A DNA stretch of 64,000 nt from an uncultured Acidobacteriota bacterium (lineage in GTDB: Bacteria > Acidobacteriota > Thermoanaerobaculia > Multivoradales > UBA5704): contig CAVYRF010000002.1 of the NCBI GenBank assembly GCA_963770895.1, positions 1 through 64,000 on the forward strand, in the 5' to 3' direction. The first letter of the stretch is position 1. The number at the start of each line of letters is the position of its first letter. A model generated the notes under the pieces. That model was not told the origin of the DNA. It searched no databases and saw nothing but the letters and a program-made list of their open reading frames with translations. A program made the translations under genes and the position numbers. Below, in pieces: positions 1 through 15,370 of the stretch.

Positions 1-35
1 AACTGGCGGATCCACATCACATAGATCGCGTTCAT
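1..35 (-). CDS. ABC-2 type permease, 5' end only (runs off window)
   Basis: ATG at 35 with GAGGG SD, reads MNAIYVMWIRQ; directly downstream of a DrrA-like ATPase. Confidence 0.6.
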   Translation of the reverse strand, partial: MNAIYVMWIRQ

Positions 36-42
36 ATCCCTC

Positions 43-831
43 TCACTTGCGGCGCATCGCGCGCGCCATCGTCCGCATGCGGTCGGTGGAATTGGATTCC
101 TCTTCGCGGATGGAAGAGCCGGTCAGCGCCAAAAACGCCTGCTCCAGGCTGTCGGCGCCCGTCTGTGCCTTCAGCTCCGCGGTCGAACCCAAAGCCACGA
201 TGCTGCCATGGTCGATGATCGCGATCCGCTGCGCCACCCGCTCCGCCTCCTCCATATAGTGGGTGGTCAGGAACACCGTCACGCGCTCCTTTTCGTTCAG
301 CTGCTTGACATGCGTCCACAGCTGGTTGCGCGTCTGCGGGTCCAGCCCCAGCGTCGGTTCGTCCAGGAACAAGATCCGCGGCGTATGCAGCAGCCCGCGC
401 GCGATCTCCAGCCGCCGCCGCATCCCGCCCGAAAACTGCTTCACCGGATCGCCCCGCCGCTCCCAAAGCTCGAACAGACCCAGCAGCTCCTCGATCCGCT
501 GCCGCCGCACCTTGCGCGGCACGCTGTACAAGATGCCGTGCAGATCCATGTTCTCGTACGCCGTCAGCTCGTCATCAACGCTGGGGTCCTGAAACACAAT
601 GCCAAACCGCCGCCGCACCTCGTCATGCGCCACCGCCGGATCCAGCCCATCGATCTCCACCCGGCCGCTGGTCGGCCGCAACAACGTCGTCAACATCTTG
701 ATCGTCGTCGTCTTCCCCGCCCCGTTCGGCCCCAGAAACGCAAAGATCTCCCCTTCCGGGATCTCAAACGAAATCCCCGCCACCGCCACCAGCTCCCCGT
801 ACTTCTTGACCAGGTTCTCCACCCGAATCAT
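43..831 (-). CDS. ABC transporter ATP-binding protein (DrrA/multidrug type)
   Basis: Walker A GPNGAGKTT, signature FSGGMRRR, Walker B ILFLDEPT, H-loop TTHY; start taken at MIRVENL. Confidence 0.93.
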   Translation of the reverse strand: MIRVENLVKKYGELVAVAGISFEIPEGEIFAFLGPNGAGKTTTIKMLTTLLRPTSGRVEIDGLDPAVAHDEVRRRFGIVFQDPSVDDELTAYENMDLHGILYSVPRKVRRQRIEELLGLFELWERRGDPVKQFSGGMRRRLEIARGLLHTPRILFLDEPTLGLDPQTRNQLWTHVKQLNEKERVTVFLTTHYMEEAERVAQRIAIIDHGSIVALGSTAELKAQTGADSLEQAFLALTGSSIREEESNSTDRMRTMARAMRRK

Positions 832-960
832 CGCCAACGCCGCACCCTCACCATGTCTCGTCGTAGTTCCAGGTAGTTCCAGAGGATCGTCCAGGATCGC
901 ACCGCAGCTTCGCCCAACCACACCGCTACACCACCAACAGCATCGCCAATCGCATCGCTA

Positions 961-1041
961 CCGCCCCACCGCCTCGCCCGCCCTGCGCCGCGCCCACCCG
1001 CCCCACCGCCTCGCCCGCCCTGCGCCGCGCCCACCCGCCCC
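961..1041 (+). repeat. 37-bp tandem repeat, about 2.2 copies
   Basis: ccgccccaccgcctcgcccgccctgcgccgcgcccac at 961-997 and 998-1034, partial third copy. Confidence 0.85.
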
Positions 1042-1076
1042 GCCGGCGACCGAAGCATACATGACCGGCCAACCCG

Positions 1077-1109
1077 CGGTGGTGACATCGGTGGTGACAT
1101 GCCTGTCAC
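1077..1109. promoter_or_regulatory. Direct repeat plus palindrome upstream of recombinase (putative protein-binding site)
   Basis: cggtggtgacat x2 (1077-1100) overlapping GTGACA-N4-TGTCAC (1094-1109); TATGAT -10-like hexamer at 1175-1180. Confidence 0.4.
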
Positions 1110-1210
1110 ACCCCCGAGGCGCCGCAGAGCCCTCGTTTCACCACCGCGGCTCCAGCAAGGGCGCCGCCACCACCTATGATTCCCCTCCCTGGCAACTTCG
1201 AGGAGGGGAC

Positions 1211-2155
1211 ATGACTCTTGATGAAGCCGTCACGATCTTTCTGTCACATTGTCGTTACGAAAAGAACCTCAGCCAGAAGACTCTGCGCGCCTACAACATC
1301 GACCTCCGCCAGCTGATGGACCACCTGCGCCTCCTCGACCCCACCCTCCCCTCCCTGCCCGATCTCGACAAAGCCCTCCTCCGCCGCTACATCCAAAGCC
1401 TCTTCGGCCGCAATGCCGACAAGACCATCAAGCGCAAAGTCGCCACCCTCAAGGTCTTCTTCCACTTCCTGGAGCGAGAAGACCTCATCGGCATCAACCC
1501 CTTCCGCAAAATGGACGTCCGCATCCGCGAAGCCCGCCGCCTCCCCCGCACCGTCCCCCTGGCCGACCTCCGAGCCCTCTTCCGCTACCTTTACGCCCAC
1601 AAGCGCACCCTCCAGCAGCCCGACACCCCCGCCTACCGCCGCGTCGTCCGCGACATCGCCGTCCTCGAGCTCCTCTTCGCCACCGGCGCCCGCGTCTCCG
1701 AAATCTGCACCCTCACCCAGCAAAACGTCGATCTCCGAGAAGGCTACGTCCGCATCTTGGGAAAAGGCGCAAGGGAGCGTATAATTCAGCTCTGCGATGA
1801 CGAAACTCTGGAGGCGCTAAGGGCTCACCAAGCCCTCGGCCCCTCCCCAGAAGGAGGCTACTTCTTCTCCAACGGCAGCACCGGCCGCCACCTCTCCGAC
1901 CAATCCGTCCGCACCATGCTCAAAACCACCGTCCGCCGAGCCGGCCTCCACCTCCACCTGACCCCCCACATGATCCGCCACACCATCGCCACCCTCCTCC
2001 TGGAAAGGGGCCTCGACATCCGCTACATCCAGCACCTCCTGGGCCACAGCTCCATCTCCACCACCCAGATCTACACCAGCGTAGAAGCCGGCCACCAACG
2101 CCGCCTCCTAACCGCCCACCACCCCCGCCGCCATCTGCTTCAAAACATCGCATGA
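1211..2155 (+). CDS. Tyrosine recombinase/integrase (XerC/D-like)
   Basis: GGAGGGG SD then ATG at 1211; SAM-like N-domain; catalytic R (TGARVSE), K (GKGARER), HxxR (HMIRH), LLGH and Y (TQIY) all present. Confidence 0.95.
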   Translation: MTLDEAVTIFLSHCRYEKNLSQKTLRAYNIDLRQLMDHLRLLDPTLPSLPDLDKALLRRYIQSLFGRNADKTIKRKVATLKVFFHFLEREDLIGINPFRKMDVRIREARRLPRTVPLADLRALFRYLYAHKRTLQQPDTPAYRRVVRDIAVLELLFATGARVSEICTLTQQNVDLREGYVRILGKGARERIIQLCDDETLEALRAHQALGPSPEGGYFFSNGSTGRHLSDQSVRTMLKTTVRRAGLHLHLTPHMIRHTIATLLLERGLDIRYIQHLLGHSSISTTQIYTSVEAGHQRRLLTAHHPRRHLLQNIA

Positions 2156-2445
2156 GCACCAACGTAGCGATAACTCGGAATTATCAAGCCTCGCACCTGG
2201 AGGGGCACGTGACGGACAGCGAACTCGGAGTGTGCGGAGAACCGCCTGGACTGACGCAGGTTGTCCTGGCATTTCTCAAGGCCAGATTCATGTGCCTTGG
2301 ACTGGTCCCAGATCTCCTCGGGAAAGTCGACAGCTCCAAGTCGCGGTGGAAGCCATGTTCCCAATCGCTCCATTCGCAGGGCGCATCCGACCTGTCGCAC
2401 CTTCGGGTTCATTTTCTCGGGTCGCTCAGCCAACCGCCTGACTAA
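2152..2445 (+). CDS. Small hypothetical ORF reading through the left repeat (ATG 2152 or GTG 2209)
   Basis: ATGA overlap with recombinase stop; in-frame GTG start MTDSEL with SD identical to the aminotransferase start; no recognisable domain. Confidence 0.3.
   Translation: MSTNVAITRNYQASHLEGHVTDSELGVCGEPPGLTQVVLAFLKARFMCLGLVPDLLGKVDSSKSRWKPCSQSLHSQGASDLSHLRVHFLGSLSQPPD
2169..2227 (+). repeat. Left inverted repeat / putative recombination site
   Basis: gataactcggaattatcaagcctcgcacctggaggggcacgtgacggacagcgaactcg equals reverse complement of 9741-9798 apart from one extra G; core GATAA-CTCGGAA-TTATC. Confidence 0.92.
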
Positions 2446-2471
2446 TCTCTACTTCAAAAAGGTGCTCGCGC

Positions 2472-5400
2472 ATGTCACACGTGCAAGTGAGTTGTGGAAC
2501 ATCGCCCAATTCACTGCGATGGAGGCTTGGGCAGTACGGCGGCCACGCCTTTGACGATCTTCTCTTCGACGTCCTTACCCGAGATCTCCAGCAGCAGGAT
2601 CCGAATATCCGAGTGCGACAGACTCCTCGCGTCGAGGATGGTGGCCGTGACGTCGAGATAGTGACCGACAAGATACTGAAGCTGGCTGGCGTCGTGATTC
2701 ATCCACCTGGCGCAGCCCCGCATAGGATCTTGGTCGAAGTGAAGACGATAACGTCGGGCTCCAAGCCACGGCTTCCATTTTCTGCGTTTGGCAAAAACTA
2801 CCACCAGCTTCGCGGGCTGGATTATTCCCACTTCGTTCTCGTCACGAATGCCTCGATCTCCCCGCGAACGGCGCGAGAGGTGTCACAGTCCTTCTCCGCA
2901 GCCGGGAAGCAATTCGTCCTTATCGACGAGTATCTCCTCTGGACCTTGCTTGATAAGCATGGCTTGGCAGGCCGATTACCAGAACGTTCGGAGTTGACTC
3001 CTACCGAGCTCGTGATCGAAACGCAGGTCAAGCGCACGGTGCAGGACGAAGCCGTGATCATCGACCTCGACCTGATGCTCCGCAACTACTCGAACATGCC
3101 GAGGCGCGTCACTGTCGAGAATCGCAGCGATGTGACCTGGCGGCAGACCATTCCCGAGGTGACCCGCACGATTGAGCCCGGCCGGTTCGAGACACTGCAC
3201 CTGATCGCCAAGAGCAGGAGACGCGAGACCGGCGATCTGGAGCTTCGCGTCCATGATCAGGATGGGGCGGAGTACCCTCTTCGCTTCGAAGCCCGTGACA
3301 TTGCCTTCGACTTTAAGCCGCCTCTCGTCGGAGAGCGACATCACCGCTGCCTCAACGAGCTGGTCGTCGCTCTCGGCGCAGACCTTCCGAGCCACCTTGT
3401 CAGCGTGGTCGGTGGAGCTGGACGAGGCAAAACACGCCTGATTGAAGAGGCTCTTGCCCGTACCGACAGGGCCACCCGCAAGGTCGTCCGTGCGGTGGTC
3501 GATCCTGATCGGTCGGAGCCAGCACTGGAAGCCGTGCTCAGCGGGATTCATGCCGCGCTCGGCGACACAGCTGCCCATCGAAACCTGAAGCCAGGCCGTC
3601 ACCCGTCCACGGCAGTCCGATTGCTCGAGGTGCTGACACAGCTCGACCATGCGTTCTACTCCGTCGTCATCTTGCTGGAAGACCTTCATCACGCAAGCCA
3701 CCCGGTCTTTACTCTCCTGCGCGACTTCCTGCGCATCGACCGCTCTGGGCAGTGTCCCTTGACTTTCGTCATTTCAGGACGCGATGACTACTCCTTCCCA
3801 AACGATGCATATTTCGCTCTCCTGGACGTGCTTGCCCACGCCGCGGCAGAGACGCCCGCCGTCGGGGAGTGTCGCGTAAGCACGATTCGCGTCCCTGATT
3901 TAACGCCCGAGGACTCTCGGCTTTTGATTCGCGCCATCGTGCGCGATGCACCAGCGTACGCCATGGATCGCCTCGAGGCCATTGGCGAGAATGTGCCTTT
4001 CTTCATTGTGCAGACCATAGAATATATGCTGGAAACAGGCATCGCCATTTTGTTGTCGCGCGAGAGCGTTGGCATTCCCAACCCGGCGGTGTTCGGTTCG
4101 CGAGCCGGCTTCCCAGCTGCAATGAAGTCTATTCTTACGGGCAGGTTGACGGCTCTCGACGCGCAGCCCGAAGGGCTCCGTCTGCGCCACTTTCTGGGAG
4201 TCTCTTGTTTTTTTGGCCAGCTGATACCCCAGGATATCGAGTTCGCGCTGATTGGAAACGTATCTGTTGATGAGGTCGAAGACCTGCTAATTGGCCGGCG
4301 ATTTCTCAAGCGCGGCGATGATGGATCGCTCCAGTGGTACCACGAGAACATCCTGCACCTCCTGCAAGAACTGGTACACGATGACGGCAGTGCGACGCTG
4401 CTGGCGCAGGAGATCGCCCTGACGCCGGCCCTGTTCAAGCACTTTACCGGCTGGCGTGCCGGCAGAATCCTGAGCGAGGCCGGGCTTCATCGTGCCGCAT
4501 TGCCGTATTTTACCACCATTAGCTCGCTTGCGGATGCAATGACCAACTTCAGCTCCGTTAACGTGGACCATACCTGCTTCGACTATTTATCGTGTACGTT
4601 CGATTCCGCAATAGCCTGTGGCGAGCAGCCGTCCCGGCTAATTCGTCTACTACTGCTACAGACGTATATCGCCGTGCACCACTACTCTGGACGGCATGGG
4701 CCCGAGACCGCAGCGCATGCCCTCTCGCGGCTGCCCCTCGTTCCGGCCGATGACGCGGAATTGCTCGAAGCGCGCGCCAAGCTCTTGCAACTGCGCGCGC
4801 ATGGGCTTATGGACATCGGTGAAATCGGCCGTGCAACCAAGCTGTTCTTGGAAATGGAGGGCTCGGTTAAACAGCCCGATTCGATCCTCAGGCAGCCAGA
4901 CCTGCTCTTCGATCTCTACAATCGCCTTCAAGACATCTATCGCATGCACAACCACCTAGCCGTCTGCGAACGGTACGGCGAGCTGGCCGGTCATGCGGCA
5001 CGTCAATCTGGAGGTGAGCTGCAGACTGTGGCGATGGGCGACAGTGCCATTGTTTACCACTACGTCGATACCCCGCGGTGTATCCGCCTTCACGAGGAGG
5101 CCCTTGCGTTTGCTCACCTCTTCGGCGCGAAGCGTCATGTCGCCCACATCGAGGTCGGCCTCATCGTGGCCAGCTTGAGCGACGCAGGAAGCAACGTCGA
5201 ACGCCTCAAAGATCTCATGGCCCGCGCGATCGAGCTTCTGCGCCAAGCGCTCGACAAGTCGTATGGGTCGCTTCTGGCACGCATCTACTTGCTACTGGCC
5301 ACGGTTGCGCATCTCCTCGCAGCGTACGGTGTCACGTCGAAGTCAGCGGTCGACAAGTACATCGAGCTCAGTCTTAATGCCGCAGTGATGTACCGGTCTG

Positions 5401-5825
5401 GCTACGACGCGTGGATGATCTACAACCTAAAGGCAATAGCAGCCTTGAGCGCCGGCCGGCCGATTAAGGAGGTAGGTGCCTACTTCGCTACGGCACTGCG
5501 CCTGCTGCGCCGTAGCGCTCTTCTCTTCCTCGGGAACCTCGACCTAACCTTCGAGAATATCATCGTTTTAAGCAACATCCTACGCTTCCTATCCGAACAC
5601 GGGACAGAGCGAGAGAAGTTCTCTATCGCACTTGAAATACGCCATTATGAAGACGTGGACGATGTTGCGCGAGGAGATCCGGAAGCCGACCTCTCTTGGG
5701 GGAAAGTCCGCTTCTCACAGCTTGAGCAAGATGTCCTCAACCATCGCATCATCGGGCAGACCGTTGTGCCAGACTCAGTGTTATTCGACAACGTGACTGG
5801 CTACGCTATTTGCGTTACTTGCTGA
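2472..5825 (+). CDS. Mrr-like PD-(D/E)XK nuclease - STAND/AAA NTPase - helical (TPR-like) repeat protein, Avs-like
   Basis: N-terminal QTPRVEDGGRDV...ILVEVK nuclease motif; Walker A GGAGRGKT; Walker B VILLEDLH; long alpha-helical C-terminus; 1117 aa. Confidence 0.8.
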   Translation: MSHVQVSCGTSPNSLRWRLGQYGGHAFDDLLFDVLTRDLQQQDPNIRVRQTPRVEDGGRDVEIVTDKILKLAGVVIHPPGAAPHRILVEVKTITSGSKPRLPFSAFGKNYHQLRGLDYSHFVLVTNASISPRTAREVSQSFSAAGKQFVLIDEYLLWTLLDKHGLAGRLPERSELTPTELVIETQVKRTVQDEAVIIDLDLMLRNYSNMPRRVTVENRSDVTWRQTIPEVTRTIEPGRFETLHLIAKSRRRETGDLELRVHDQDGAEYPLRFEARDIAFDFKPPLVGERHHRCLNELVVALGADLPSHLVSVVGGAGRGKTRLIEEALARTDRATRKVVRAVVDPDRSEPALEAVLSGIHAALGDTAAHRNLKPGRHPSTAVRLLEVLTQLDHAFYSVVILLEDLHHASHPVFTLLRDFLRIDRSGQCPLTFVISGRDDYSFPNDAYFALLDVLAHAAAETPAVGECRVSTIRVPDLTPEDSRLLIRAIVRDAPAYAMDRLEAIGENVPFFIVQTIEYMLETGIAILLSRESVGIPNPAVFGSRAGFPAAMKSILTGRLTALDAQPEGLRLRHFLGVSCFFGQLIPQDIEFALIGNVSVDEVEDLLIGRRFLKRGDDGSLQWYHENILHLLQELVHDDGSATLLAQEIALTPALFKHFTGWRAGRILSEAGLHRAALPYFTTISSLADAMTNFSSVNVDHTCFDYLSCTFDSAIACGEQPSRLIRLLLLQTYIAVHHYSGRHGPETAAHALSRLPLVPADDAELLEARAKLLQLRAHGLMDIGEIGRATKLFLEMEGSVKQPDSILRQPDLLFDLYNRLQDIYRMHNHLAVCERYGELAGHAARQSGGELQTVAMGDSAIVYHYVDTPRCIRLHEEALAFAHLFGAKRHVAHIEVGLIVASLSDAGSNVERLKDLMARAIELLRQALDKSYGSLLARIYLLLATVAHLLAAYGVTSKSAVDKYIELSLNAAVMYRSGYDAWMIYNLKAIAALSAGRPIKEVGAYFATALRLLRRSALLFLGNLDLTFENIIVLSNILRFLSEHGTEREKFSIALEIRHYEDVDDVARGDPEADLSWGKVRFSQLEQDVLNHRIIGQTVVPDSVLFDNVTGYAICVTC

Positions 5826-7608
5826 GCTCTGCCTGTCGCGTCTTCGTGATCAAGGCGCCCTCAATGACGAGCGCATCTAGCCCGCAGGACAGGAACGCGC
5901 GGATTGAATCTTCCGGCGTCTCCACCATTGGCTCTCCGGCCAAGTTGAACGATGTGTTCAGGAGCACCGCAAGACCAGTTCGCCGATGAAACGCGGCCAA
6001 CAGCGCCTGCAGAAATGGTTCCTGACTATCCACAGTCTGAACTCGTGCCGTACCGTCGATGTGGGTAATGGCCGGTAACAGCGCCTGATACGCTGCTCGG
6101 ACATCGCACGCGAAGAGCATGAATGGCGAGGGCTGGATAAGGTCAAAGATCTCTGCCGCATGCTCGGCGAGGACCATCGGAGCGTAGGGCCGAAACGCTT
6201 CACGGAACTTTACGTAGGCGTTCAAGTGGTCTTTCATAGAGGGAGATCGCGGATCTGCAAGGATCGAACGATGCCCCAAGGCCCTGGGGCCCAGTTCGCT
6301 GCGACCACGCAGCAGGCCGACGGTCCAGCCCTGCTCGATGAGGGCGGCGACCTCTTCGACCAGGACATGATCGTCGTGCCACTCGTATGCGAGCCCGTGC
6401 CGAGCGATCGCTGCCTCAATAGCGTGTCGGTCGTAGGAGAGTCCAGCATAGGGAAGAACGGGAGGGACGGCAGGCTCAGCCGGATGTAATGTGGGCCTAG
6501 GAGTCCGTCCCTTGAGCAATGCACTTACTGCAAACGCGGCCCCCACTGCGTGACCTTCGTCACCGCAGGCAGGCATGGCAAAGATCTCGCTGAAGAGCCC
6601 GGCCTTCAGGAGCTTGTGGTTCGCCACGCAGTTGAGGAAGACACCTCCAGATACACATAGCTTCGGCTCACCCAAGCGGTCACGGGTGTAGCGCGCAAGG
6701 CCGAGCAGCGCCTCTTCGGTGAACTTCTGAATCGTACTCGCCGCATCGGCGCGGTGCAGCCGAATGAACGCACCTATGGACATCGACTCAGTTTCGGCGA
6801 CGTTTTCGACTTCACGGATGATGTCGGCGAGGGTGAGCGAGTAACTGAAGTCGGTCACTGGCCACATGCGCGGATCTACTAGAGGCCTTCCATAGGACGC
6901 AAGGCCCATTGTCTTGCCGTTCTGTTCGTTGCCGAACCCTAAGAAGTAAGTGAACTGCTCGTACTTTCGACCGATACCAACGGTCTGTGTCGCGTAGCGG
7001 TCAGGCATCTGGGAAGCGCAGTAGAAGAACGGCCGGTCGTAGATGTCGTGCAGGAACGACTGCAAGCGACGATCGCACAGTTCCAGGGTGTCGCCATCGG
7101 CGAGGAACAGGCTCTCGCCCTCCATGCCCACGGCAAGGTCGGCCGCTCCTGGTGCCCCAACCGACTCCCTCCCAGGCGGCCCGACGAGATCGCCGGCGCC
7201 GTCACAGACTAGGATCGCGCAGCGCTGGAATCCGGAAAGTGCGCGTACACTCCAGGCGTGTGCGAGATGGTGCGTCACCGGAATACACGTGATGTCGGGA
7301 AGGTCAAAATAAACGCTCAGATCGTCTTCAAAACGACCGGCAAGCTTGTTGACCTCGCAGTTCTCGAAGCTAAATCCGACAGCGTCGACATCGTGAATCG
7401 TGCGGCCAACCTGAGCAAGGACAGCTGCGATGGCCTGGATCGGTATCTGGCAACCGGACGAGAACTTCACGCGGTCGAGCCGCTCCTGCGCGATGTGCCC
7501 GATTAGCCTGCCATTCTCCACCAGCGCCGCGCTGCGGTCGTGGCCTATATGGACGCCGAGCACTAAGCCAGAACCGCGGCATGTGACGATCGAAGGCGAG
7601 AGCTGCAT
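5815..7608 (-). CDS. O-carbamoyltransferase, NodU/CmcH/TobZ family
   Basis: GHDRSAALV, QERLDRVK, HHLAHA, DGAGD, GKTMGLASYG, SELGPRALGHRSILADPR, KFREAFRPYAP, NTSFN. Confidence 0.93.
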   Translation of the reverse strand: MQLSPSIVTCRGSGLVLGVHIGHDRSAALVENGRLIGHIAQERLDRVKFSSGCQIPIQAIAAVLAQVGRTIHDVDAVGFSFENCEVNKLAGRFEDDLSVYFDLPDITCIPVTHHLAHAWSVRALSGFQRCAILVCDGAGDLVGPPGRESVGAPGAADLAVGMEGESLFLADGDTLELCDRRLQSFLHDIYDRPFFYCASQMPDRYATQTVGIGRKYEQFTYFLGFGNEQNGKTMGLASYGRPLVDPRMWPVTDFSYSLTLADIIREVENVAETESMSIGAFIRLHRADAASTIQKFTEEALLGLARYTRDRLGEPKLCVSGGVFLNCVANHKLLKAGLFSEIFAMPACGDEGHAVGAAFAVSALLKGRTPRPTLHPAEPAVPPVLPYAGLSYDRHAIEAAIARHGLAYEWHDDHVLVEEVAALIEQGWTVGLLRGRSELGPRALGHRSILADPRSPSMKDHLNAYVKFREAFRPYAPMVLAEHAAEIFDLIQPSPFMLFACDVRAAYQALLPAITHIDGTARVQTVDSQEPFLQALLAAFHRRTGLAVLLNTSFNLAGEPMVETPEDSIRAFLSCGLDALVIEGALITKTRQAELSK

Positions 7609-7624
7609 GGGTCCTCGTTGTCTC

Positions 7625-8383
7625 TCAAATCGTCATGTTGGGGCCAGGATAGGCCCGATGATCGCAGCGAGAGCACACCGGTCCAGCCCTTCGCCTATCG
7701 CCGCGCATGAGATGCTGCCGGAGCTGCTCCATCGATGCGCTGCGCCAGATGTCCTCTAGACGAGAACGTCCCAGGTTGCCCAAGACGACCTCGCGACGCG
7801 CATCTTCATGGCAGAGAACTACGTCACCGTTGACAGTCACGATCAGCATCTCAGACGGCGCATGACAGGCCCGTCGCAGCGGCCTCTTGACACTGAGGAC
7901 GGCACCGGCGCGCCCGGACAGATCGAGATCACGAGGAAATTGCACAAGTTGATGGAGCCGACGTCGCATCGGCTCCCCGCCGTGGCGAGTTACGATGAAG
8001 AACTCGACACCCGCGTCGAGGAGGCTGGCATAGCGGGCGTCACTGAGAAGGTCCCCGTTGCTGTAGAGCACGAGATGTGCGAGCGGTAGCCAAGCGCGGG
8101 CGATTGCGATGAGGTCCTCGAGGTCCTTGCGGACTAGCGGCTCGTTGTAAAAATGAAACGACAATCGGCCGCTGAACTCGATCCCAGCAAGCTGAGCCAC
8201 GATACTGCGATATAGCTCTATTTCCATGAATAAGGATGACGACGTTGAGCCGAGCGTGCCGTTCGGGCAATAAGAACAGGTGCGGTTGCAGCGCACACCC
8301 ACTTCGATTTCGACGACGCTCGGCCAGGGAGCGGAGGGTGGACACGAATTCGTGCCATTTGAAAGTGAGGAGTTGGAAGCCAT
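7625..8383 (-). CDS. btrN: Radical SAM/Twitch dehydrogenase, BtrN-like (inosamine dehydrogenase)
   Basis: EIEVGVRCNRTCSYCP, GRLSFHFYNEPL, YSNGD, CHAPS..VTVNGDVVLCHED, C-terminal CSRC; about 250 aa, collinear with BtrN as recalled. Confidence 0.8.
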   Translation of the reverse strand: MASNSSLSNGTNSCPPSAPWPSVVEIEVGVRCNRTCSYCPNGTLGSTSSSLFMEIELYRSIVAQLAGIEFSGRLSFHFYNEPLVRKDLEDLIAIARAWLPLAHLVLYSNGDLLSDARYASLLDAGVEFFIVTRHGGEPMRRRLHQLVQFPRDLDLSGRAGAVLSVKRPLRRACHAPSEMLIVTVNGDVVLCHEDARREVVLGNLGRSRLEDIWRSASMEQLRQHLMRGDRRRAGPVCSRCDHRAYPGPNMTI

Positions 8384-9759
8384 TAGATCCCTTCGTGAAT
8401 TGTGAGCTCGCAGGCGCGGGCCTTTAGCGCTGGCGCATATGTGCGGACTTTGATGATGGCCTTGACGACGTCCTGCATATCGTCGGGAGCAGAAAGCAGC
8501 ATTTGATGAGGAAACGTCACGACCTCTGCGTAGGCCTGGGCGGCGCGAGGAAGTGCAAAGCGGCTAGGCTCCAACGCGTCGCGTACTTCCTGGTTGCGAG
8601 CAGCCATCGGTGCTTTAGTTGGTACATAAAGAGGATTTGCGTTCAGCGGCGCATCAATGCCACGGATGTCTACACTCAGCTCGGCCGCAAGAGCCGGAAC
8701 GATTTCGAGAGCCGAGAGGCCAGCGAAGACTGAGCGATTCACGCGCGCGGCTAATCTGTAGTAAGTGGGTCGGTTAACATCGGCACCTGGCACTATCAGT
8801 TCGATACCGTCGATGGATGCGATGCTAGCGGCGAGCGTGTCGACACAGGTCATCCGGTGGCCATTTTCCCGATCGAGTCGGCCGAGGCCCTCAAGCAGCA
8901 GCGCGGACTGAAACTCGGTGAGGCAAAGATTCTGTCCGGCCACTTCCCCGGCGGCCCTTAGCTCGTAACCGTCAGGCGCGATAGCGTGGCGTGCGCCAAT
9001 CGCTGGCAGTTGCTCTATGTCGAGGTTATTCGCCGGCGCACTAAAAGGGTCAGAACGATACTGCCTACCGTCGGCTCGAAGTTGCTGCAACTTCGCGTAG
9101 AGCGTGGGGTCGTCGGTAACGCATAGACCACCCTCACCGCTGGTAAGCAGCTTGCTCTGCTGAGTACTAAAGACGCTGATCGCGCCGAATGATCCTATTT
9201 GACTGCCGCGCCACGTTGCGCCGTGTGCCTGGGAGGCGTCTTCGATTAGCGTGACGCCTTGTCGTTGGGCCATGTCAAGGTATGCAGCGACATCACAGAT
9301 TGAGGAATACATGTGAATCATTAGAATGGCGCGCGTCTTTGGCGTGATCGCGCGTTCGATCGTAGAGGCCGATGCGCAAAGGCTCGCGGAATCAATGTCA
9401 ACGAAAATGGGACGCGCGCCAAGTCTGGTGATCGCGGCCGGAACTGCAACCCAGGTGAGGCCAGTCAGGATGACCTCATCTCCCGGACCGACGTCGAGTG
9501 CCTGTAGCGCGATTGAGAGGGCTGCTGATCCATGCGAGCAGGCGACGCAGTACTTTCGTCCAACATAGGCCGCGAATGCTCTGCTTATCCGCCGCTCGAA
9601 GGTGTCTGGAGCGTTGGACCAACCGCTGATAGCCCATTTCCCAGAGTGGAGAACCTCAAGTACGCAGCGTTGTGTAGCAGCAGTGGCTACAGGCCATTTA
9701 GGCCACGGCCGCTGGCGGACTGGATGGCCCCCAAACAACGCGAGTTCGCTGTCCGTCAC
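8383..9759 (-). CDS. btrR: DegT/StrS PLP aminotransferase, BtrR/NeoB-like inosose aminotransferase
   Basis: VLHSGKWAISG, FERR, GLTWVA, IEDASQAHG, FSTQQSKLLTSGEGG (PLP Lys), LRADGR; TAATG coupling to the radical SAM gene. Confidence 0.82.
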   Translation of the reverse strand: MTDSELALFGGHPVRQRPWPKWPVATAATQRCVLEVLHSGKWAISGWSNAPDTFERRISRAFAAYVGRKYCVACSHGSAALSIALQALDVGPGDEVILTGLTWVAVPAAITRLGARPIFVDIDSASLCASASTIERAITPKTRAILMIHMYSSICDVAAYLDMAQRQGVTLIEDASQAHGATWRGSQIGSFGAISVFSTQQSKLLTSGEGGLCVTDDPTLYAKLQQLRADGRQYRSDPFSAPANNLDIEQLPAIGARHAIAPDGYELRAAGEVAGQNLCLTEFQSALLLEGLGRLDRENGHRMTCVDTLAASIASIDGIELIVPGADVNRPTYYRLAARVNRSVFAGLSALEIVPALAAELSVDIRGIDAPLNANPLYVPTKAPMAARNQEVRDALEPSRFALPRAAQAYAEVVTFPHQMLLSAPDDMQDVVKAIIKVRTYAPALKARACELTIHEGI

Positions 9760-9798
9760 GTGCCCTCCAGGTGCGAGGCTTGATAATTCCGAGTTATC
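9741..9798 (-). repeat. Right inverted repeat / putative recombination site containing SD and start of the aminotransferase
   Basis: 58-bp inverted copy of 2169-2227. Confidence 0.92.
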
Positions 9799-9929
9799 CC
9801 ACTCACACGGGACGGGCCGCTGTTGCTCAACGAAATAATCCAGGTAATCACCGGGTGAGACTACGTCAGCTGGTGGTCGTGGAGGCAGGTGCTTTGCAGG
9901 AGCCAGATTCCACTCTCAAGGAGAACTTC

Positions 9930-11249
9930 ATGAACCGGCAGGGTGTCCACATTAAACCTTCGCAAGGAAAGTTAGGAGTTTTGTTGGTGGGACTGGGCGC
10001 AGTCTCCACTACCTTCATCGCAGGAGTCGAGGCTGTCAAAGCCGGGCTCGGAAAGCCGATCGGTTCGCTGACGCAGATGGGGACCGTCCGCCTCGGCGAG
10101 CACTCGGATGACCGGGCGCCTCGCATCGCCGACTTCGTACCCCTTGCACACCTTGAGGATCTGGTCTTCGGCGCCTGGGATATTTTTCCCGACGACGCCT
10201 ATGCTATCGCCTGTGGGGCCAAAGTCCTCGAGCGTGGGTTGCTTGACCGGCTTCGTCCCGAGTTGGAGGCTATCCGTCCCATGAAGGGGGTTTTCAACCC
10301 TCGCTACGTCAGACGCCTCAATGGCACCCACGTCAAGGAAAATTGTAATAAGTGGGAGCTAGCCGACATGCTAAAAAGTGATATCGAGGAGTTCCAGCGC
10401 CAGCGCGGGATTCAGAGGTCGGTGATGGTCTGGTGCGGCTCAACGGAAAGTTACTTGTGCGCCTCTGAGGTCCACCAGTCCCTCGACGATTTTGAGGCAG
10501 GACTGAGGAAAAGCGACGATGCGATCCCGTCAAGCATGATCTACGCTTATGCTGCCCTGTCACTAGGAATTCCTTTTGTCAACGGTGCGCCAAACTTGAC
10601 GTTGGACGTGCCGATCTTCCGCGAGCTGGCGAAGAAACAGCTGGTTCCGATCTGCGGCAAGGACCTAAAAACCGGTCAGTCGCTGATGAAGACCATCATC
10701 GCCCCTGGCCTCAAGGCCCGACTGCTCGGCCTCGAAGGCTGGTTCTCGACGAACATCTTGGGCAACCGTGACGGTGAGGTGCTGGACGACCCCGAGTGCT
10801 TTAGGACTAAAGAGCGCAGCAAACTCTCGGTTTTGGAGCATATCCTTGAGCGTCATCTGTACCCGGATCTCTATGGCGACTTCCATCACCAGGTCCAAAT
10901 CCACTACTACCCGCCACGGGGAGACAACAAAGAGGGATGGGACAACGTTGACATCTTCGGCTGGCTCGGCTATCCGATGCAGATTAAAATCGATTTCCTT
11001 TGCCGGGACAGCATTCTGGCTGCTCCGCTTGTGCTCGACCTTGTCCTCTTTCTTGACCTCTGCCACCGCGCTGGCATGCACGGCATACAGGAGTGGCTCT
11101 CGTTTTATTTCAAGAGCCCGATGACGCCTCCGGGCCTTCATCCGGAGCACGATCTTTTTGTCCAGCTCACGAAGCTTCAAAATACTTTACGGTTCCTGAG
11201 AGGCGAGGGACAGGTCACGCACCAAGAGCTTGATTACAAACCGGAGTGA
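9930..11249 (+). CDS. ino1: myo-inositol-1-phosphate synthase
   Basis: AAGGAG SD; GLGAVSTT, VWCGSTE, NGAPN, GKDLKTGQ, TNILGNRDG, GDNKEGWD, CRDSILAAPLVLDL. Confidence 0.93.
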   Translation: MNRQGVHIKPSQGKLGVLLVGLGAVSTTFIAGVEAVKAGLGKPIGSLTQMGTVRLGEHSDDRAPRIADFVPLAHLEDLVFGAWDIFPDDAYAIACGAKVLERGLLDRLRPELEAIRPMKGVFNPRYVRRLNGTHVKENCNKWELADMLKSDIEEFQRQRGIQRSVMVWCGSTESYLCASEVHQSLDDFEAGLRKSDDAIPSSMIYAYAALSLGIPFVNGAPNLTLDVPIFRELAKKQLVPICGKDLKTGQSLMKTIIAPGLKARLLGLEGWFSTNILGNRDGEVLDDPECFRTKERSKLSVLEHILERHLYPDLYGDFHHQVQIHYYPPRGDNKEGWDNVDIFGWLGYPMQIKIDFLCRDSILAAPLVLDLVLFLDLCHRAGMHGIQEWLSFYFKSPMTPPGLHPEHDLFVQLTKLQNTLRFLRGEGQVTHQELDYKPE

Positions 11250-11321
11250 ACGCCCTGCAGCAGCTGGTGAAGAACCTGACTTCGCATCCTGACACGCGAA
11301 TGGACAGGGCGCCGGCCCGGC

Positions 11322-12641
11322 TCAGCGGGTGGCGGAGAGGTCGGCGCCTTTGGCTTCGCGGCCGGCTAGGGTGATTGCGGCGAGGAGGAGGGAGACCAGG
11401 AGGACGGTTAGGGCTAGGACGGGGGGGTAGCGGCCGGCGTAGCGGCGCTCGACTAGCTTGGCTTGGATGACGGAGTTGCGGGAGGAGAGGAGGTTGCCGA
11501 GCTGGTAGGTGAGGCCGGGGAAGGTGCCGCGGAGGCTGGGTGGGGAGAGCTCGTTGAGGTGGGCGGGGACGACGCCCCAGGCGCCTTGGACCATGAACTG
11601 CATCAGGAAGCCACCTAGGGCCAGCAGGGGGGCGGTGGTGGCGTAGGCCCACAGGGGGATGACGGGGATGGCCAGGAGGGCGGCAAGGACGATGGCGCGG
11701 CGGCGGCCCAGGCGCTCGGACCAGGCGCCGAAGCAGATGCCTCCCAGGAGGGCGCCGATGTTGTAGATCACTGCGATGGTGCCGACGGCGGCGGGCGAAA
11801 AGCCGTGGTTCTTCTCCAGGAAAGTGGGATAGAGGTCCTGGGTGCCGTGGCTCAGGGAGTTGAAGGCGAACATGAGGACGGCCAGGAAGAGAAAGGTTCC
11901 CAGGTGGGCGAGGACGCCGCTGCGCCACGGCTGCGGCGATGGGCTGGCGGTGTTGGCGGCGTTCGCGGCGTCGGCGGCATTGGCCTCGCTGAGGGCAGCG
12001 ACGGGGGACGCTTGCGGCGGGGCGAGCGCGCTTGCGGGGTCGCGGCCCTCGCGCCAGGCTGGCGATTCGTCGACTTGCGCGCGGATGTAGAGCACCAGCA
12101 GGGCTGGCAGGGCGCCGACGATGAAGAGGCCGCGCCAGCCGACGAAGGGGAAGAGGGTGCCGTAGAAGAGCGCGGCTCCCAGGTAGCCGACGACGTAGCC
12201 TTCCTGCAGGAGGCCGGAGAAAAAGCCGCGGCCTTGGGCTGGCAGGGTTTCGAAGGCTAGGGCGGCGCCGACGCCCCATTCGCCTCCCATTGCGATTCCG
12301 AAACAGGCGCGCAAGACCAGGAAGACGGGGAGGGAGGGCGCAAAGGCGGAGGCCAACTCGAAGATCGAATAGCAGACGATGTTGATCATCAGGGTGGGCC
12401 GGCGGCCGTAGCGATCGGCGAGGCGGCCGAACAGGAAGGCTCCGACTGGACGCATGGCGAGGGTCAGGAAGATTGCCTCGGCGATGGCGGAAACCTTGGT
12501 GTGAAACTCCGCGGCGATGGCGCTGACGCAGAAGACCAGGATGAAGTAGTCGAGCGCATCCAGCGACCAGCCCAGGAAGCAGGCGACAAAGGTGCGGCGC
12601 TGCGAGGGCGTGAGCCGGCGGAAGGGGCCGATGAGATCCAT
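11322..12641 (-). CDS. MFS transporter, sialate/lactate:H+ symporter (SHS) family
   Basis: GWSLDALDYF, GRLADRYGRR, GIAMGGEWG, HGTQDLYPTFL; 12 TM pattern. Confidence 0.9.
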   Translation of the reverse strand: MDLIGPFRRLTPSQRRTFVACFLGWSLDALDYFILVFCVSAIAAEFHTKVSAIAEAIFLTLAMRPVGAFLFGRLADRYGRRPTLMINIVCYSIFELASAFAPSLPVFLVLRACFGIAMGGEWGVGAALAFETLPAQGRGFFSGLLQEGYVVGYLGAALFYGTLFPFVGWRGLFIVGALPALLVLYIRAQVDESPAWREGRDPASALAPPQASPVAALSEANAADAANAANTASPSPQPWRSGVLAHLGTFLFLAVLMFAFNSLSHGTQDLYPTFLEKNHGFSPAAVGTIAVIYNIGALLGGICFGAWSERLGRRRAIVLAALLAIPVIPLWAYATTAPLLALGGFLMQFMVQGAWGVVPAHLNELSPPSLRGTFPGLTYQLGNLLSSRNSVIQAKLVERRYAGRYPPVLALTVLLVSLLLAAITLAGREAKGADLSATR

Positions 12642-12788
12642 GGGTGGTTACGCCCTCGCTTGCGTGGGGTCGATGGAGCGCCTGGGATCGGCAAAAAGCA
12701 TCGCACTTGGCTTGCCCTCGATGGCTGGGGCTGCGTTGCTCCCGGCCGGGAGTGCCGCCTTGAGGCCGGAGGGCACGCAAGGAGCCTT

Positions 12789-12811
12789 CGGATGAACCGG
12801 GCGGGACACTA
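12789..12811. repeat. Copy of a 23-bp dispersed repeat (REP/MITE-end-like)
   Basis: Minus strand tagtgtcccgcccggttcatccg resembles 14744-14766 and inverted 14698-14720. Confidence 0.55.
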
Positions 12812-13762
12812 ATCCGCTCCTGCGCCGGAGCTTTGGCGGCTGGCGACCCGGACTGGATAGGTGCCGATGGGGGTCTGCGCACCGCCGGCGGCGATGCCGG
12901 TGACGGTCAGGCGATAGTCCCCTGCCGTCAGAAAGGCGGGGGGGAAGGTGATCATCAGGACGCCCAGCGCGTTGGGATGCAGTCCGTTGCGTTGGACCAG
13001 GCGGCGGCCTGCGGCATCCTGCAAGTCGATGCCGTAGCTGGCGAAGCGCGGGTCGTCGCCGGCATCGACGGCAAGCGACAGGGGCTGTGCCGCCTGCGCC
13101 GCGGTGATGATGGGGAGCACCGCTGGCGCGTCGCGGAAAATATGGAGCAGGATGAGCGGCGCGTCGAGCAGCGGTTGGCTCCAGGACGAGCCGCCCCGCG
13201 ACGGATGCGTACCGGAGGCCAGCTGGGCTTGCAGCCGGGCGCGCTCGGCGCTGCCCTGCGCCTGGGCGGCCTGCAGCTGGTGGCTCAGCTCGTCGGCCCT
13301 GGCGTGGTCGGTTTGCCAGCGCTGCCGGTAGGCATCCGCCTGGCGTGCGGCGGCACCGGCCGCACTGGCGGCGCCGGTTGCGGCGCCGGCTTCGGCAGCG
13401 CTCGCTCCAGGCGTCCGCATGTCGCGGTCTGCGCGCCGGCCTGCCAGCCAGGCAGCTGGAATGCCCGCCGCCAACAGCAGGACCAAGGCTCCGGCGGCGC
13501 CTCGCGCCAGACGCCCGCGGCGCGCCAGCCAGGCGAAGAGGCCGGCGGCCATGAGGGCGTGCTGCGTCGCGGCGGCGACCGCCGCGTCTTCCGCGGCCAT
13601 GGCGTGGACACCGCGGGCGAAAGAGCGGGCCACGTCGAGCTCGCGGGTGCACTCGGCACAGCCGACAAAATGCTCTTCGAAGCGCGCCTCTTCGTCCGGC
13701 TCCAGCAGGCCCTGGCGGTAGCGGTCGATCAGGCCGTGCTCCTCGATGTAGGCGTGGTCCAT
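12809..13762 (-). CDS. Zinc-finger (zf-HC2) membrane anti-sigma factor
   Basis: FEEHFVGCAEC HxxxCxxC, TM helix, coiled coil, beta-rich C-domain; follows ECF sigma. Confidence 0.85.
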   Translation of the reverse strand: MDHAYIEEHGLIDRYRQGLLEPDEEARFEEHFVGCAECTRELDVARSFARGVHAMAAEDAAVAAATQHALMAAGLFAWLARRGRLARGAAGALVLLLAAGIPAAWLAGRRADRDMRTPGASAAEAGAATGAASAAGAAARQADAYRQRWQTDHARADELSHQLQAAQAQGSAERARLQAQLASGTHPSRGGSSWSQPLLDAPLILLHIFRDAPAVLPIITAAQAAQPLSLAVDAGDDPRFASYGIDLQDAAGRRLVQRNGLHPNALGVLMITFPPAFLTAGDYRLTVTGIAAGGAQTPIGTYPVRVASRQSSGAGAD

Positions 13763-13779
13763 AGGCTCTCGCCTCGCCG

Positions 13780-14619
13780 TCAGGCGCGCGACTCCACGGG
13801 AGGCACCGCCGCGGTCTTCGGCGGCATGGCAGGGACCGTCGGGATGGTCGGGATGGCTGCCTGGGTCGGGAAGGCTGGCCGGGCAGGCCAGGGCGAGGCG
13901 GCGCCCAGCCGTCCCGCGCTCGCCGCGCCCGCAGGCCGCTCCGCGCGCGCCGCTCTGGACGCGTGGCTGGCTGCCGCCGCGGCGAGCGCGGCGACCGCGA
14001 CCGTGGCGACCAGCAGGAGGGCGGTGCGGAGGGCCGCGGCCGGGTTGCGGGCGAGGTGCGCCGCGAGCAGCTCCTTGTAGCGCTGGCGGGCGCGATGGAG
14101 GACGCGGTTGAACTGCAGGGCGGTGAGGCCGAAGTCGGCGGCGATGCGGTCGCGGTCTTCTTCGGCCAGGTAGAAGCGCAGCAGCACCTGGCGGTCGCGA
14201 TCGTTGCCCAGCTCGGCGATCACCCGCCGCACCAGGGCCGCGTTTTCGCGCGCCAGGACTTCGCTCAGCTGGCCGGTGCCTTCGGCCGCGACCTCCGCGA
14301 CGGCGTCGCTGTCGGCTTCTGTGCGCCGCCGCGTCGCCTTGCGGTAGTGCTCGATGGCCAGGTTGCGGGCGATCTGGGCGAGAAAGCCGGGGAGCTTTTC
14401 GGCCTCCCTCAGCTCGCCGCGCCGCAGCTTTTCGAGCGCCACGCGGAAGGTGTCTTGAAACAGGTCTTCGGCTTCCGGCCGGCCGCTGGTGTGGCGGTCG
14501 AGGAGCAGCGCGACACCGCGGCCGAAGAGCGCCACCATCTGCTCTTCGGCGGCCCGGTCCCCCACCGCGATGCGCCCGGCAAGGTCGCTTACTTGGACCT
14601 GCTCCGCGTCGATCTGCAT
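13780..14619 (-). CDS. ECF sigma factor with hydrophobic C-terminal extension
   Basis: AEDLFQDTF (region 2), IARNLAIEHYRK, region 4 VLHRARQRYKE; start taken at MQIDAEQ. Confidence 0.88.
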   Translation of the reverse strand: MQIDAEQVQVSDLAGRIAVGDRAAEEQMVALFGRGVALLLDRHTSGRPEAEDLFQDTFRVALEKLRRGELREAEKLPGFLAQIARNLAIEHYRKATRRRTEADSDAVAEVAAEGTGQLSEVLARENAALVRRVIAELGNDRDRQVLLRFYLAEEDRDRIAADFGLTALQFNRVLHRARQRYKELLAAHLARNPAAALRTALLLVATVAVAALAAAAASHASRAARAERPAGAASAGRLGAASPWPARPAFPTQAAIPTIPTVPAMPPKTAAVPPVESRA

Positions 14620-14697
14620 GTCGTCGTTACCCGGAAAGCAGCGGCTGTTTCCTGTTCGAGAAGCCGCATGCCAGTGGCCCAACCAGGCGGGATACTG

Positions 14698-14764
14698 GTG
14701 CCCCGCCCGGTTCATTCGCATGGTAGTCGCGCTGCAATCCGTGCGAATGAATCGGACGGGACAC
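14698..14764. repeat. 23-bp imperfect inverted repeat (hairpin) upstream of the ECF gene
   Basis: gtgccccgcccggttcattcgca ... tgcgaatgaatcggacgggacac; 3 differences, 2 of them G-U pairs in the minus-strand RNA. Confidence 0.7.
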
Positions 14765-14784
14765 TAGCATGCCCGGCGCCTCGC

Positions 14785-15261
14785 CTATCGCGCCGGGGCG
14801 CCGGCGCCTCCGGGTCTCTTTCCGGTGGCTTCAAAAGGTGCAGGCGGCGGGTTGCCGTCGGCGCCCCAGACCCCCACCTGGTCGGGATCGCCGATGGTCG
14901 TCGAGGCGTAGATGGACAGGTAGGTGCCGCCGTCGAGCAGCTGGGCCTCGGCCAGCGAGATGTAGATGCGCAGCGGCCGCTGTTGGTAAAAGCCGAAGCC
15001 TCGCAGGGTGCCGCGGCTGAAGACGAGCAGCAGCGGTTCCTGGTCGGAGGAGGCCGAGCTGAGGATCGGGTTGCCGTTCGGGTCGAGCAGCGAGAAGCCG
15101 ACGCAGACCTCGTAGTCCTCGGACAGCTGCGGCGCCGGCGCGCCGTCGGCGACGCCCGTGCCGATGAGCATCGTGCAGTTGGTTTGCACGAAGGGGGCCT
15201 CGCCCGATACCCATTGAACGTACCACTTGCCAATGAAGGGTGCGACGGTTTCAACGGCCAT
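14785..15261 (-). CDS. Hypothetical protein (158 aa, beta-rich)
   Basis: AAAGGAG SD, host-like codon usage, in the CHAT-ECF operon. Confidence 0.75.
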   Translation of the reverse strand: MAVETVAPFIGKWYVQWVSGEAPFVQTNCTMLIGTGVADGAPAPQLSEDYEVCVGFSLLDPNGNPILSSASSDQEPLLLVFSRGTLRGFGFYQQRPLRIYISLAEAQLLDGGTYLSIYASTTIGDPDQVGVWGADGNPPPAPFEATGKRPGGAGAPAR

Positions 15262-15370
15262 GACGGTGGCTCCTTTCGTTCATTCATGCCTCCAGCAGCT
15301 AAGTGTGATCAGAAGCGCGGACATCGCACCGACTGCCCCGCACGGGCTCGGCTGGGCGCGGCCGGGTTCC

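Follow-up and report, generated by a model that had tools for sequence, protein, structure and literature searches.

The locus under study lies at the left end of a 64,000-nucleotide (nt) stretch of DNA from an uncultured Acidobacteriota bacterium (assembly GCA_963770895.1, contig CAVYRF010000002.1, positions 1 to 64,000), hereafter called the window. It consists of a Xer-like tyrosine recombinase gene followed by a 7.6-kilobase (kb) segment, which is enclosed by two inverted copies of a short repeat and carries a gene for a putative nuclease-STAND protein converging on a three-gene operon of the aminocyclitol type. Judged from the sequence of this locus and of its relatives, the element is probably a site-specific invertible segment which toggles the two modules.

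The recombinase gene (1211-2155, + strand) codes for a protein of 314 amino acids (aa), the proposed invertase, in which the Pfam search identified an N-terminal SAM-like domain (PF02899, E-value (E) 3e-13) and a catalytic domain (PF00589, E 2e-37). Its start is the ATG at 1211, behind the Shine-Dalgarno sequence GAGGAGGGG at 1200-1208; a longer reading of 518 aa (599-2155) was rejected, as it overlaps the adjoining ABC gene and the homologues start at the position of ATG 1211. The protein was found to align over its full length with XerD (1a0p, E 2.5e-31), with the segments ATGARVSE, GKGARER, HMIRH and LLGHSSISTTQIYT falling on the XerD motifs and the R-K-H-R-H-Y set in register, and the preliminary description was right in calling the gene intact. 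The residues R, K, H-x-x-R, H/W and Y have well-known catalytic roles in tyrosine recombinases, and the corresponding R161, K185, H253, R256, H279 and Y288 were invariant in 14 recombinase homologues. The protein scored below the NCBIfam equivalog cut-offs for XerC (226.1 against 335.15 bits) and for XerD (214.2 against 329.6 bits), and a separate locus in the same genome passes the XerD cut-off with 345.8 bits; hence, it is a Xer paralogue and not the dimer-resolution enzyme. The integron integrase model gave 88.6 bits against a cut-off of 265, and the sites are inverted pairs of one 17-base-pair (bp) type, which does not correspond to an integron.

The left repeat copy (2169-2227, + strand, 59 nt) contains a core site, a leader with GGAGGGG, a GTG and six codons common to both copies, and its right counterpart (9741-9798, - strand) has 58 nt. 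Two blocks of 36 nt (2169-2204 with 9763-9798) and 25 nt (2203-2227 with 9741-9765) were found by repeat search to be 100% complementary, shifted against each other by a single G (GGGG in place of GGG) which lies outside the 17-bp core. The outer end of each copy is GATAACTCGGAATTATC, that is GATAA-CTCGGAA-TTATC, a dyad with an asymmetric spacer; the recombinase-proximal site occupies 2169-2185 (+) and the recombinase-distal site 9782-9798 (-), and the sequence fits the family consensus GATAACT-N4-ATTAT(C). The stop codon TGA of the recombinase (2153-2155) is separated from the left copy by 13 nt (2156-2168). The inverted copies with their one-G indel, the 13-nt distance from the recombinase stop and the core having the form of a tyrosine recombinase site had all been pointed out before, and the repeat search, the coordinates and the inspection of both copies bear them out. 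The window contains the 17-mer at exactly two positions (four matches are listed, since each site also matches itself on the opposite strand with three mismatches), against a mean of 0.01 matches in shuffled sequences, none of the 100 shuffles attaining four. In the whole genome of 8,164,432 bases a 61-nt repeat query was placed at these two positions only, and the degenerate core pattern gave one forward and one reverse site. The repeat is 59 nt long here, compared to about 17-25 nt elsewhere, because the GTG lies 22 nt past the site and the ribosome-binding sequence GGAGGGG is carried within the repeat.

The gene nearest to the recombinase encodes the nuclease-STAND protein (2472-5825, + strand, 1117 aa), with AAA_22 (E 3.7e-8) and AAA_16 matches in Pfam. 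It is preceded by a leader of 244 nt (2228-2471, + strand) through which an open reading frame (ORF) of 78 or 97 codons runs (from 2209 or 2152 to 2445); this frame was dropped as a gene, as it has no tblastn homologue in the fetched loci and no Pfam, NCBIfam or PADLOC hit. The protein is laid out as a restriction-endonuclease-like part (about residues 1-165, with D56/D60...E89-x-K91), a beta-sandwich (about 180-272), a P-loop nucleoside triphosphatase (NTPase) from about residue 300 and a long C-terminal region, and a family of 107 library representatives, mostly of about 1090 aa, matches this layout. Over 53 STAND sequences D56, G58, D60 and K91 are invariant and E89 is nearly so, and the Walker A motif GxGKS/R is conserved. 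The AlphaFold2 model (predicted local distance difference test score (pLDDT) 90, predicted template modelling score (pTM) 0.80) found MspJI (4f0p_A) as its best Foldseek match with E 7.9e-5 over 152 columns, followed by AspBHI with E 1.5e-3. Sequence searches in Pfam, NCBIfam and PDB gave no nuclease match for the protein, no PADLOC defence model matched it, and the Atlas search with the N-terminus returned low scores (0.81); the family profile searched against PDB found MalT, Cdc6 and plant NLRs, all on the NTPase part. The conserved D...ExK motif and the modelled likeness to MspJI lend moderate support to a PD-(D/E)xK-like nuclease domain, and to the same extent to the earlier label of nuclease-STAND.

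Converging on this gene, the operon on the - strand begins with a DegT-family aminotransferase (8383-9759), whose GTG start and first six codons are part of the right repeat, and continues with a BtrN-like radical SAM/SPASM enzyme of the aminocyclitol dehydrogenase type (7625-8383; Pfam Radical_SAM and SPASM) and an O-carbamoyltransferase of the TobZ/GdmN/NodU type (5815-7608; Carbam_trans_N and Carbam_trans_C), whose stop overlaps that of the STAND gene by 11 nt. The aminotransferase is nearest to L-glutamine:2-deoxy-scyllo-inosose aminotransferases (5w70, E 1.2e-86; 2c7t, E 6.5e-77), the radical SAM enzyme matches BtrN (4m7t) with E 4.9e-44 over residues 22-242, and the carbamoyltransferase matches GdmN with E 1.3e-72 and TobZ with E 2.4e-66. 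These matches support the name of aminocyclitol operon given to the module before. Past the right site, a distal flank of 131 nt (9799-9929), in which one or more promoters may lie, leads to the divergent gene for myo-inositol-1-phosphate synthase (9930-11249, + strand; PF07994 and PF01658), which is likely to be the supplier of the cyclitol precursor. Its start was placed at ATG 9930, behind AAGGAGAA, in preference to GTG 9771, which was rejected. The earlier account of the enclosed genes stands as regards the STAND gene converging on a three-gene operon, but the synthase of the same pathway is outside the right repeat. It lies within the same island of low guanine-plus-cytosine (GC) content, which has 55-60% GC over about 2000-11250 against 64-76% in the flanks, and therefore passes the right site. 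A synthase homologue is the first gene inside the segment in the relative L056 (related loci and contigs carry L numbers here), and the synthase is absent from all five related metagenome contigs described below. The genes seen in 1-12000 include no 2-deoxy-scyllo-inosose synthase, inositol phosphatase or inositol dehydrogenase. As no glycosyltransferase is present, the pathway probably ends in an aminocyclitol, free or carbamoylated, rather than in an aminoglycoside.

To the left of the recombinase lies an ABC ATPase gene (43-921, - strand), assigned by domain match. The recombinase promoter is presumed to lie in the intervening region (922-1210), where a C-rich 37-bp tandem repeat was also observed at 949-1059, in three copies of which two are identical over 37 nt. 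The ABC gene is conserved in same-genus genomes, on contigs other than those of their recombinase homologues; the locus therefore has no fixed chromosomal place. No tRNA or tmRNA gene was detected in 1-16000 and no sign of a tRNA-targeted island was seen, and 1-12000 gave no Rfam match at E<=0.1. The terminator scan returned 12 hits against 7.2 expected and was not used as support.

The association of this recombinase with this site was examined in other genomes; the loci from the genome search and the set of related loci come from overlapping collections, and their counts are not additive. Among 92 genomes of the window's family, which by record titles is Thermoanaerobaculia (Acidobacteriota) and mostly soil metagenome-assembled genomes (MAGs), a single recombinase homologue at E<=1e-60 was present in 46. 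The pattern ATAACNNNNNATTATC gave 56 sites in 33 of the 92, compared to 4 hits for the reversed-pattern control. A hand tally placed the recombinase together with the site in 30 genomes, the recombinase only in 16, the site only in 3 and neither in 43. One '+' site followed by one '-' site on the same contig, 1.7-9.5 kb apart, was seen in 15 genomes; the spacer was identical within each of these 15 pairs, and ten different spacers occurred among them. Strand exchange by a tyrosine recombinase demands just this combination of conserved arms with a spacer that is free to vary but matched within the pair.

A scan of species-representative genomes yielded 80 loci with recombinase homologues, 53-58% identical in Gemmatimonadota and 42-48% in Bacteroidota, Ignavibacteria-type bacteria, Cloacimonadota and a Minisyncoccia MAG. 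Homologous recombinases lacking such sites would, according to the preliminary description, have refuted the switch, and this refutation failed: a '+' site was found within 400 nt downstream of the recombinase match in 40 of the 77 loci with room for one, and an inward-facing pair with the same spacer in 33 of 81 sources (the window and the 80 loci). Two positions which the search pattern did not force were also conserved, namely the first G (63/66 sites) and the T after GATAAC (60/66). When 25 loci without the motif were re-examined, pairs of a variant site, GGATAACTAAAGGTTATC, were found in four. A plasmid of Aliarcobacter (L153) carries a recombinase of 44% identity, and downstream of it AATAATAGGATATTATA-type repeats enclose two 'hypothetical' genes that converge and overlap; on this plasmid a second gene annotated as site-specific integrase (6576-7784) was also observed directly upstream of the Xer-like recombinase gene. 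In a same-genus genome the recombinase is 70-78% identical and adjoins GATAACTAAGGATTATC, with the inverted GTTAACTAAGGATTATC lying 6.2 kb away; this pair brackets a glycosyltransferase and a DegT aminotransferase converging on a different AAA_16 protein of 1221 aa. The viral contigs searched gave 27 pattern matches, with no recombinase relative among them.

Some genomes carry more than one pair, or additional sites. In a Dysgonomonas isolate (L138) two paired-site segments with different spacers were observed, one at 5090-7038, 3 kb upstream of the sole recombinase, and the other at 10945-14533, directly downstream of it; one enzyme may serve two switches there, with spacers which are not interchangeable. 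Elsewhere a third site is present, either with the same spacer on another contig or upstream of the recombinase (L149:1-17), and another genome has two '+' sites on two contigs. These extra sites are hints of multi-site, shufflon-like arrangements or of several cassettes. In low-GC taxa (for example L117, L119, L120, L133, L134 and L138) a GAAT(A/G)A(A/C)(G/T)-like motif adjoins the outer edge of GATAAC at the proximal and the distal site alike, and it may be an additional recombinase-binding arm. The distal flank of L127 contains the motif TACCTTTG, which resembles the -7 promoter element of Bacteroidetes.

The organization of the segments was found to be uniform. Every paired-site segment contains two convergent modules. 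Out of 64 module starts, 46 are no more than 10 nt away from the end of the site, and in 15 the ATG is formed by the last three letters of ATTATG. The spacers are often purine-rich (AGGA, GAGA, GGGA) at Shine-Dalgarno distance. The convergent stops are at most 25 nt apart in 22 of the 26 evaluable segments and overlap in 13, and there is therefore no space for terminators between the modules. The recombinase gene is nearly always directly upstream of the '+' site and co-oriented with it; it is divergent in the same-genus genome and in contig L150. By rough estimate, 3-36 nt part the end of the gene from the site in most Bacteroidota and in the Minisyncoccia locus; most Acidobacteriota and Gemmatimonadota have about 70-270 nt there. 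The distal flank has no conserved partner gene. In L131, L082, L090, L128, L142 and L059 the two modules were seen to share their first codons past the site, as they do over six codons in the window, and so the identity reaches inward beyond the 17-bp core. In a same-genus genome, a Mutator-family transposase gene (L058:5823-7214), host-like in its GC content at third codon positions (GC3, 0.84), was observed between the two modules, parting their convergent stops.

The GC3 of the cargo is below that of the recombinase gene and of the host genes, and several cargo pairs recur in different phyla. These include a CDP-alcohol phosphatidyltransferase with an unnamed protein of about 360-380 aa, a class I/II aminotransferase with a pentapeptide-repeat protein, an ATP-grasp ligase with an AAA_16-TPR protein, GT2 or DegT enzymes with STAND proteins (as in Melioribacteraceae L144, where the STAND protein is 27% identical to that of the window), GT4 with CHAT-STAND, a methyltransferase with TIR, and UbiA with a multi-pass membrane protein. 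For the partner of about 360 aa in the first of these pairs, the Atlas search returned unnamed clusters and a weak lead to RcgA (20% of one cluster, rank 9), which was judged irrelevant.

Related loci provide both orientations of the segment. L051 and L060, which belong to two genera, have the recombinase, the distal genes and the cargo in common, with the outer edges of the sites as the exact limits of the inverted segment (1708 nt, 65% identity). In one assembly the contigs L064 and L065 are identical over 109 of 109 nt inward from the site and are joined to two different outer flanks; one of them ends 92 nt past the site. Contig ends at, or within 11 nt of, a site were noted in seven cases (two in one genome, one each in two others, and one each in L148, L149 and L126); an assembly graph would break at such places if the sample contained both junctions. 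Either partner of each conserved cargo pair can be found next to the recombinase gene. The cargo of the window itself (STAND protein 71-77% identical, carbamoyltransferase, BtrN-like enzyme and aminotransferase) was found in five metagenome contigs, enclosed by paired sites whose spacers are different. In L149, as in the window, the recombinase and the site are followed by the STAND gene; in the homologous contig L151 they are followed by the aminotransferase operon, which is the flipped state that had been predicted.

Taken together, the recombinase can very probably flip the adjoining 7.6-kb segment, and the interpretation given in the preliminary description, that flipping would decide which module lies downstream of the recombinase promoter, is supported in its structural claims by these comparisons. 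The enzyme would exchange strands within the CTCGGAA spacer and thereby invert 2186-9781. Each module begins just inside its site, and it would take its promoter and 5' leader from the flank that it faces; inversion would then swap the modules between the recombinase-side flank and the distal flank with its divergent synthase gene. The proximal module would most simply be co-transcribed with the recombinase gene, the gap between them being only a few nt in some loci. With no terminator between the modules, read-through would run antisense into the opposite module and favour mutually exclusive expression; a dependence of expression on orientation is suggested by the start codons placed at the sites and by the overlapping stops. 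In the assembled state it is the STAND gene that lies behind the recombinase gene, with the aminotransferase operon facing the synthase across 131 nt. The likely outcome would be a mixed population, in which cells differ in how much they make of an abortive-infection-type nuclease sensor and of an aminocyclitol product.

Several observations weigh against this reading. This genome itself gave no direct evidence of flipping: six sequencing runs matched the stretch (five from soil metagenomes and one labelled 'organism A', with no RNA run among them), the best containing 0.55 of the sampled words, and the contigs of four runs placed on 1-12000 have a depth of 0-5, with none spanning a site and no joint at the sites, which is uninformative either way. 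The genomes compared are kin and the locus sets overlap, and the counts are not independent trials. No site was found within 400 nt downstream of the recombinase in 37 of 77 loci; a variant site is present in four of these, and in a few the site lies farther away or upstream. In the genomes of L056, of L061 and of L064/L065 the paired sites do not adjoin the recombinase homologue but lie at a great distance from it or on a different contig, so that adjacency is not obligatory and action in trans is assumed there; the homologue in the last of these genomes (L154) is without a nearby site and has nothing in common with contigs L064 and L065. The distal neighbour points away from the segment in 17 of 28 cases and toward it in 10, with no room or ORF in one (18 and 9 after the window, which had been mis-called, was corrected by hand). 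Some distal flanks are AT-rich and promoter-like, and both modules could be expressed in both states. The sigma-70 scan gave three promoter-like hits where 2.8 were expected and was not used as support. Lastly, the 59-nt repeat, far longer than the 17-25 nt found elsewhere, could allow homologous recombination to invert the segment as well. Apart from these points, two contigs (X3 record 22 from the 'organism A' run and X4 record 30 from a soil metagenome) match the 3' part of the recombinase gene (1585-2159) and are then unlike the window; they may belong to related strains with other cargo behind the same gene.

The recombinase and its sites could instead serve mainly to capture or exchange two-gene cassettes by double crossover between molecules with like site pairs; promoters would then lie in both flanks, both modules would always be expressed and any flipping would be incidental, with no role in regulation. 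An unlikely explanation in our estimate, it would fit with one spacer (e.g. CTAGAGA) bracketing unrelated cargo in different genomes, with cargo GC3 much lower than that of the recombinase and host genes, with STAND/aminotransferase cargo of 71-77% identity in contigs of very different GC, with cargo pairs that recur across phyla, and with distal flanks which are non-coding, AT-rich and in some cases promoter-like. However, each of the segments has exactly two convergent modules with overlapping stops, which invites antisense interference, and a plain insertion platform could do without this. The low-GC island extends to 11250, past the distal site, and acquisition was therefore not bounded by the recombination sites; moreover, no circular or plasmid-borne free cassette was seen. 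Cassette exchange and toggling are compatible, and both could be true. Another possibility is that the sites and the recombinase are real but the segment has no meaningful flipping rate in this strain, leaving a frozen gene order. The absence of a flipped junction among the contigs placed on the window, the unusual 244-nt leader of the left module with its non-conserved ORF and the indel in the repeat are in keeping with a decayed switch, but the recombinase ORF is intact with all its catalytic residues aligned, the two 17-bp cores are identical with the indel outside them, and the contig data are too thin (depth 0-5, none across a site) for flips to be detected; such a fixed state is considered quite improbable.

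The motif GATAAC-N5-ATTATC could also be read as a transcription-factor site on the starts of co-regulated genes, to which the adjoining recombinase would be unrelated, for a near-palindrome overlapping the ribosome-binding region and the start codons is in a frequent position of repressor operators. Against this reading stands the spacer, identical within 15 of 15 pairs and varying between genomes, a property needed for strand exchange and not for operators. The sites always form one inward-facing pair, and across phyla the motif keeps close company with a single recombinase family. Between the collinear flanks of L051 and L060 the inversion has its breakpoints precisely at the motif, and one inner end is joined to two flanks within one assembly; all of this leaves the operator with hardly any likelihood. 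The same low standing is given to an assembly artefact or chimera as the origin of the inverted repeat. The recombinase gene is 1.2 kb from the contig end at which the window begins, and the genome is of the metagenome type with three contigs, which would suit a faulty join; but five independent metagenome contigs have the same gene order between paired sites, contradicting the misassembly that the preliminary description had named as a possible refutation. Dozens of genomes from several phyla share the architecture, and the contigs of run X1 agree fully with the inner parts of the segment that they cover. The invertible two-module segment is thus the reading retained here.

Beyond the window, the element may tentatively be placed in an undescribed, cross-phylum class of 'two-faced' immune cassettes, in which a resident Xer-like invertase, with a minimal 17-bp site merged into the translation start, toggles two functionally coupled partners and perhaps also exchanges them from one genome to another, with antisense read-through enforcing the either/or choice; this wider proposal is a speculative one and is rated well short of probable. 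The sensor or effector side of such a class may comprise nuclease-STAND, CHAT-STAND, TIR, pentapeptide and other proteins, and its enzyme side may comprise the aminocyclitol pathway, glycosyltransferases, CDP-alcohol phosphatidyltransferase, ATP-grasp, methyltransferase and UbiA enzymes. If it is true, the choice made in the window would be between an abortive-infection nuclease and an aminocyclitol-based chemical defence. Most known cases of phase variation by inversion are in host-associated bacteria, and most of them are promoter flips or allele shuffling. The compact and conserved design reported here spans soil Acidobacteriota and Gemmatimonadota, Bacteroidota, a Minisyncoccia MAG and a Campylobacterota plasmid, and it represents a broad family of apparently undescribed elements. 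Immune-type cargo (STAND, CHAT, TIR) is repeatedly paired with enzymes acting on small molecules, lipids or glycans, which may point to a new layer of immune regulation and suggests heritable, reversible either/or defence choices within a clone, possibly between coupled partners. The family would also help to make sense of many 'hypothetical' gene pairs which are kept together in different phyla, and the minimal site with a single recombinase could be used as a compact genetic toggle.

Both modules have counterparts among characterized systems. Avs-type STAND antiviral NTPases carry N-terminal nuclease effectors. The protein of the window resembles them in its putative nuclease effector, STAND NTPase and long C-terminal region, and a related cargo protein of L053 hits the PADLOC models of Avs2 and CHAT, but the window's own protein has no PADLOC match. 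The three enzymes of the operon match BtrS/BtrR, BtrN and TobZ with E 1e-86, 5e-44 and 2e-66, respectively. The locus differs from the 2-deoxystreptamine pathway in having an inositol-1-phosphate synthase next door instead of a 2-deoxy-scyllo-inosose synthase. Aminoglycosides are reported to block phage infection (PMC9239200), and a toggle between chemical and protein defence would therefore be a plausible reading.

With regard to the switch itself, the promoter invertons of fimS (FimB/FimE), Bacteroides and Clostridioides difficile likewise combine a tyrosine recombinase with short inverted repeats in phase variation; they flip a small promoter element before fixed genes, whereas here the genes flip and the flanks stay. 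Gene-altering inversions and intragenic invertons, as presented in the main texts of PMC9881135 and PMC10028968, are similar in that recombinase-linked inverted repeats alter the expressed product, but they change the coding sequence within genes such as hsdS. The main text of PMC9881135 contains no 'convergent', 'promoterless' or 'whole gene' wording, and that of PMC10028968 no 'entire gene', 'whole gene', 'convergent', 'start codon' or 'Xer' wording. A description of this recombinase clade together with a 17-bp site at the start codon and a tail-to-tail design was not found in the mostly open literature covered, including the available parts of PMC9881135, PMC10028968 and PMC7159879, and an earlier account is possible.

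The enzyme of the window shares its protein family and its domain pair with XerC/XerD, the recombinases of dif. The core of its site appears similar to the inner part of dif (ATAA, spacer, TTAT). It differs in that its sites form inverted pairs around genes and its scores are below both cut-offs, whereas dif is a single site at the terminus. The G segment of phage Mu with Gin, the C segment of P1 with Cin and the Hin system of Salmonella are inverted by serine invertases with a Fis-bound enhancer. The element described here is like the Mu G type in placing opposed alternative gene sets in an invertible segment, in having an outside fixed element that would decide between them and in the adjoining invertase gene. 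In Gin, Hin and Cin systems a constant 5' gene part is outside the segment, whereas here whole genes are inside; in addition, a Xer-like tyrosine recombinase, a minimal 17-bp site at the ribosome-binding region or start codon and functionally unrelated modules set the present element apart. In the Vpma/Vsa systems of Mycoplasma and in mba/UU376 of Ureaplasma, inversion by a Xer-type recombinase at short inverted sites at the 5' ends of genes changes the expressed gene. The likeness to these lies in the Xer-family enzyme and in inverted sites at gene 5' ends, and Ureaplasma also alternates two unrelated genes. However, the Mollicutes switches act on surface antigens of host-associated bacteria, often with many paralogues. 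The segments reported in this study have strictly two convergent modules with overlapping stops, occur in free-living soil phyla and Bacteroidota, and pair immune-type NTPase, TIR and pentapeptide proteins with small-molecule- or lipid-modifying enzymes.

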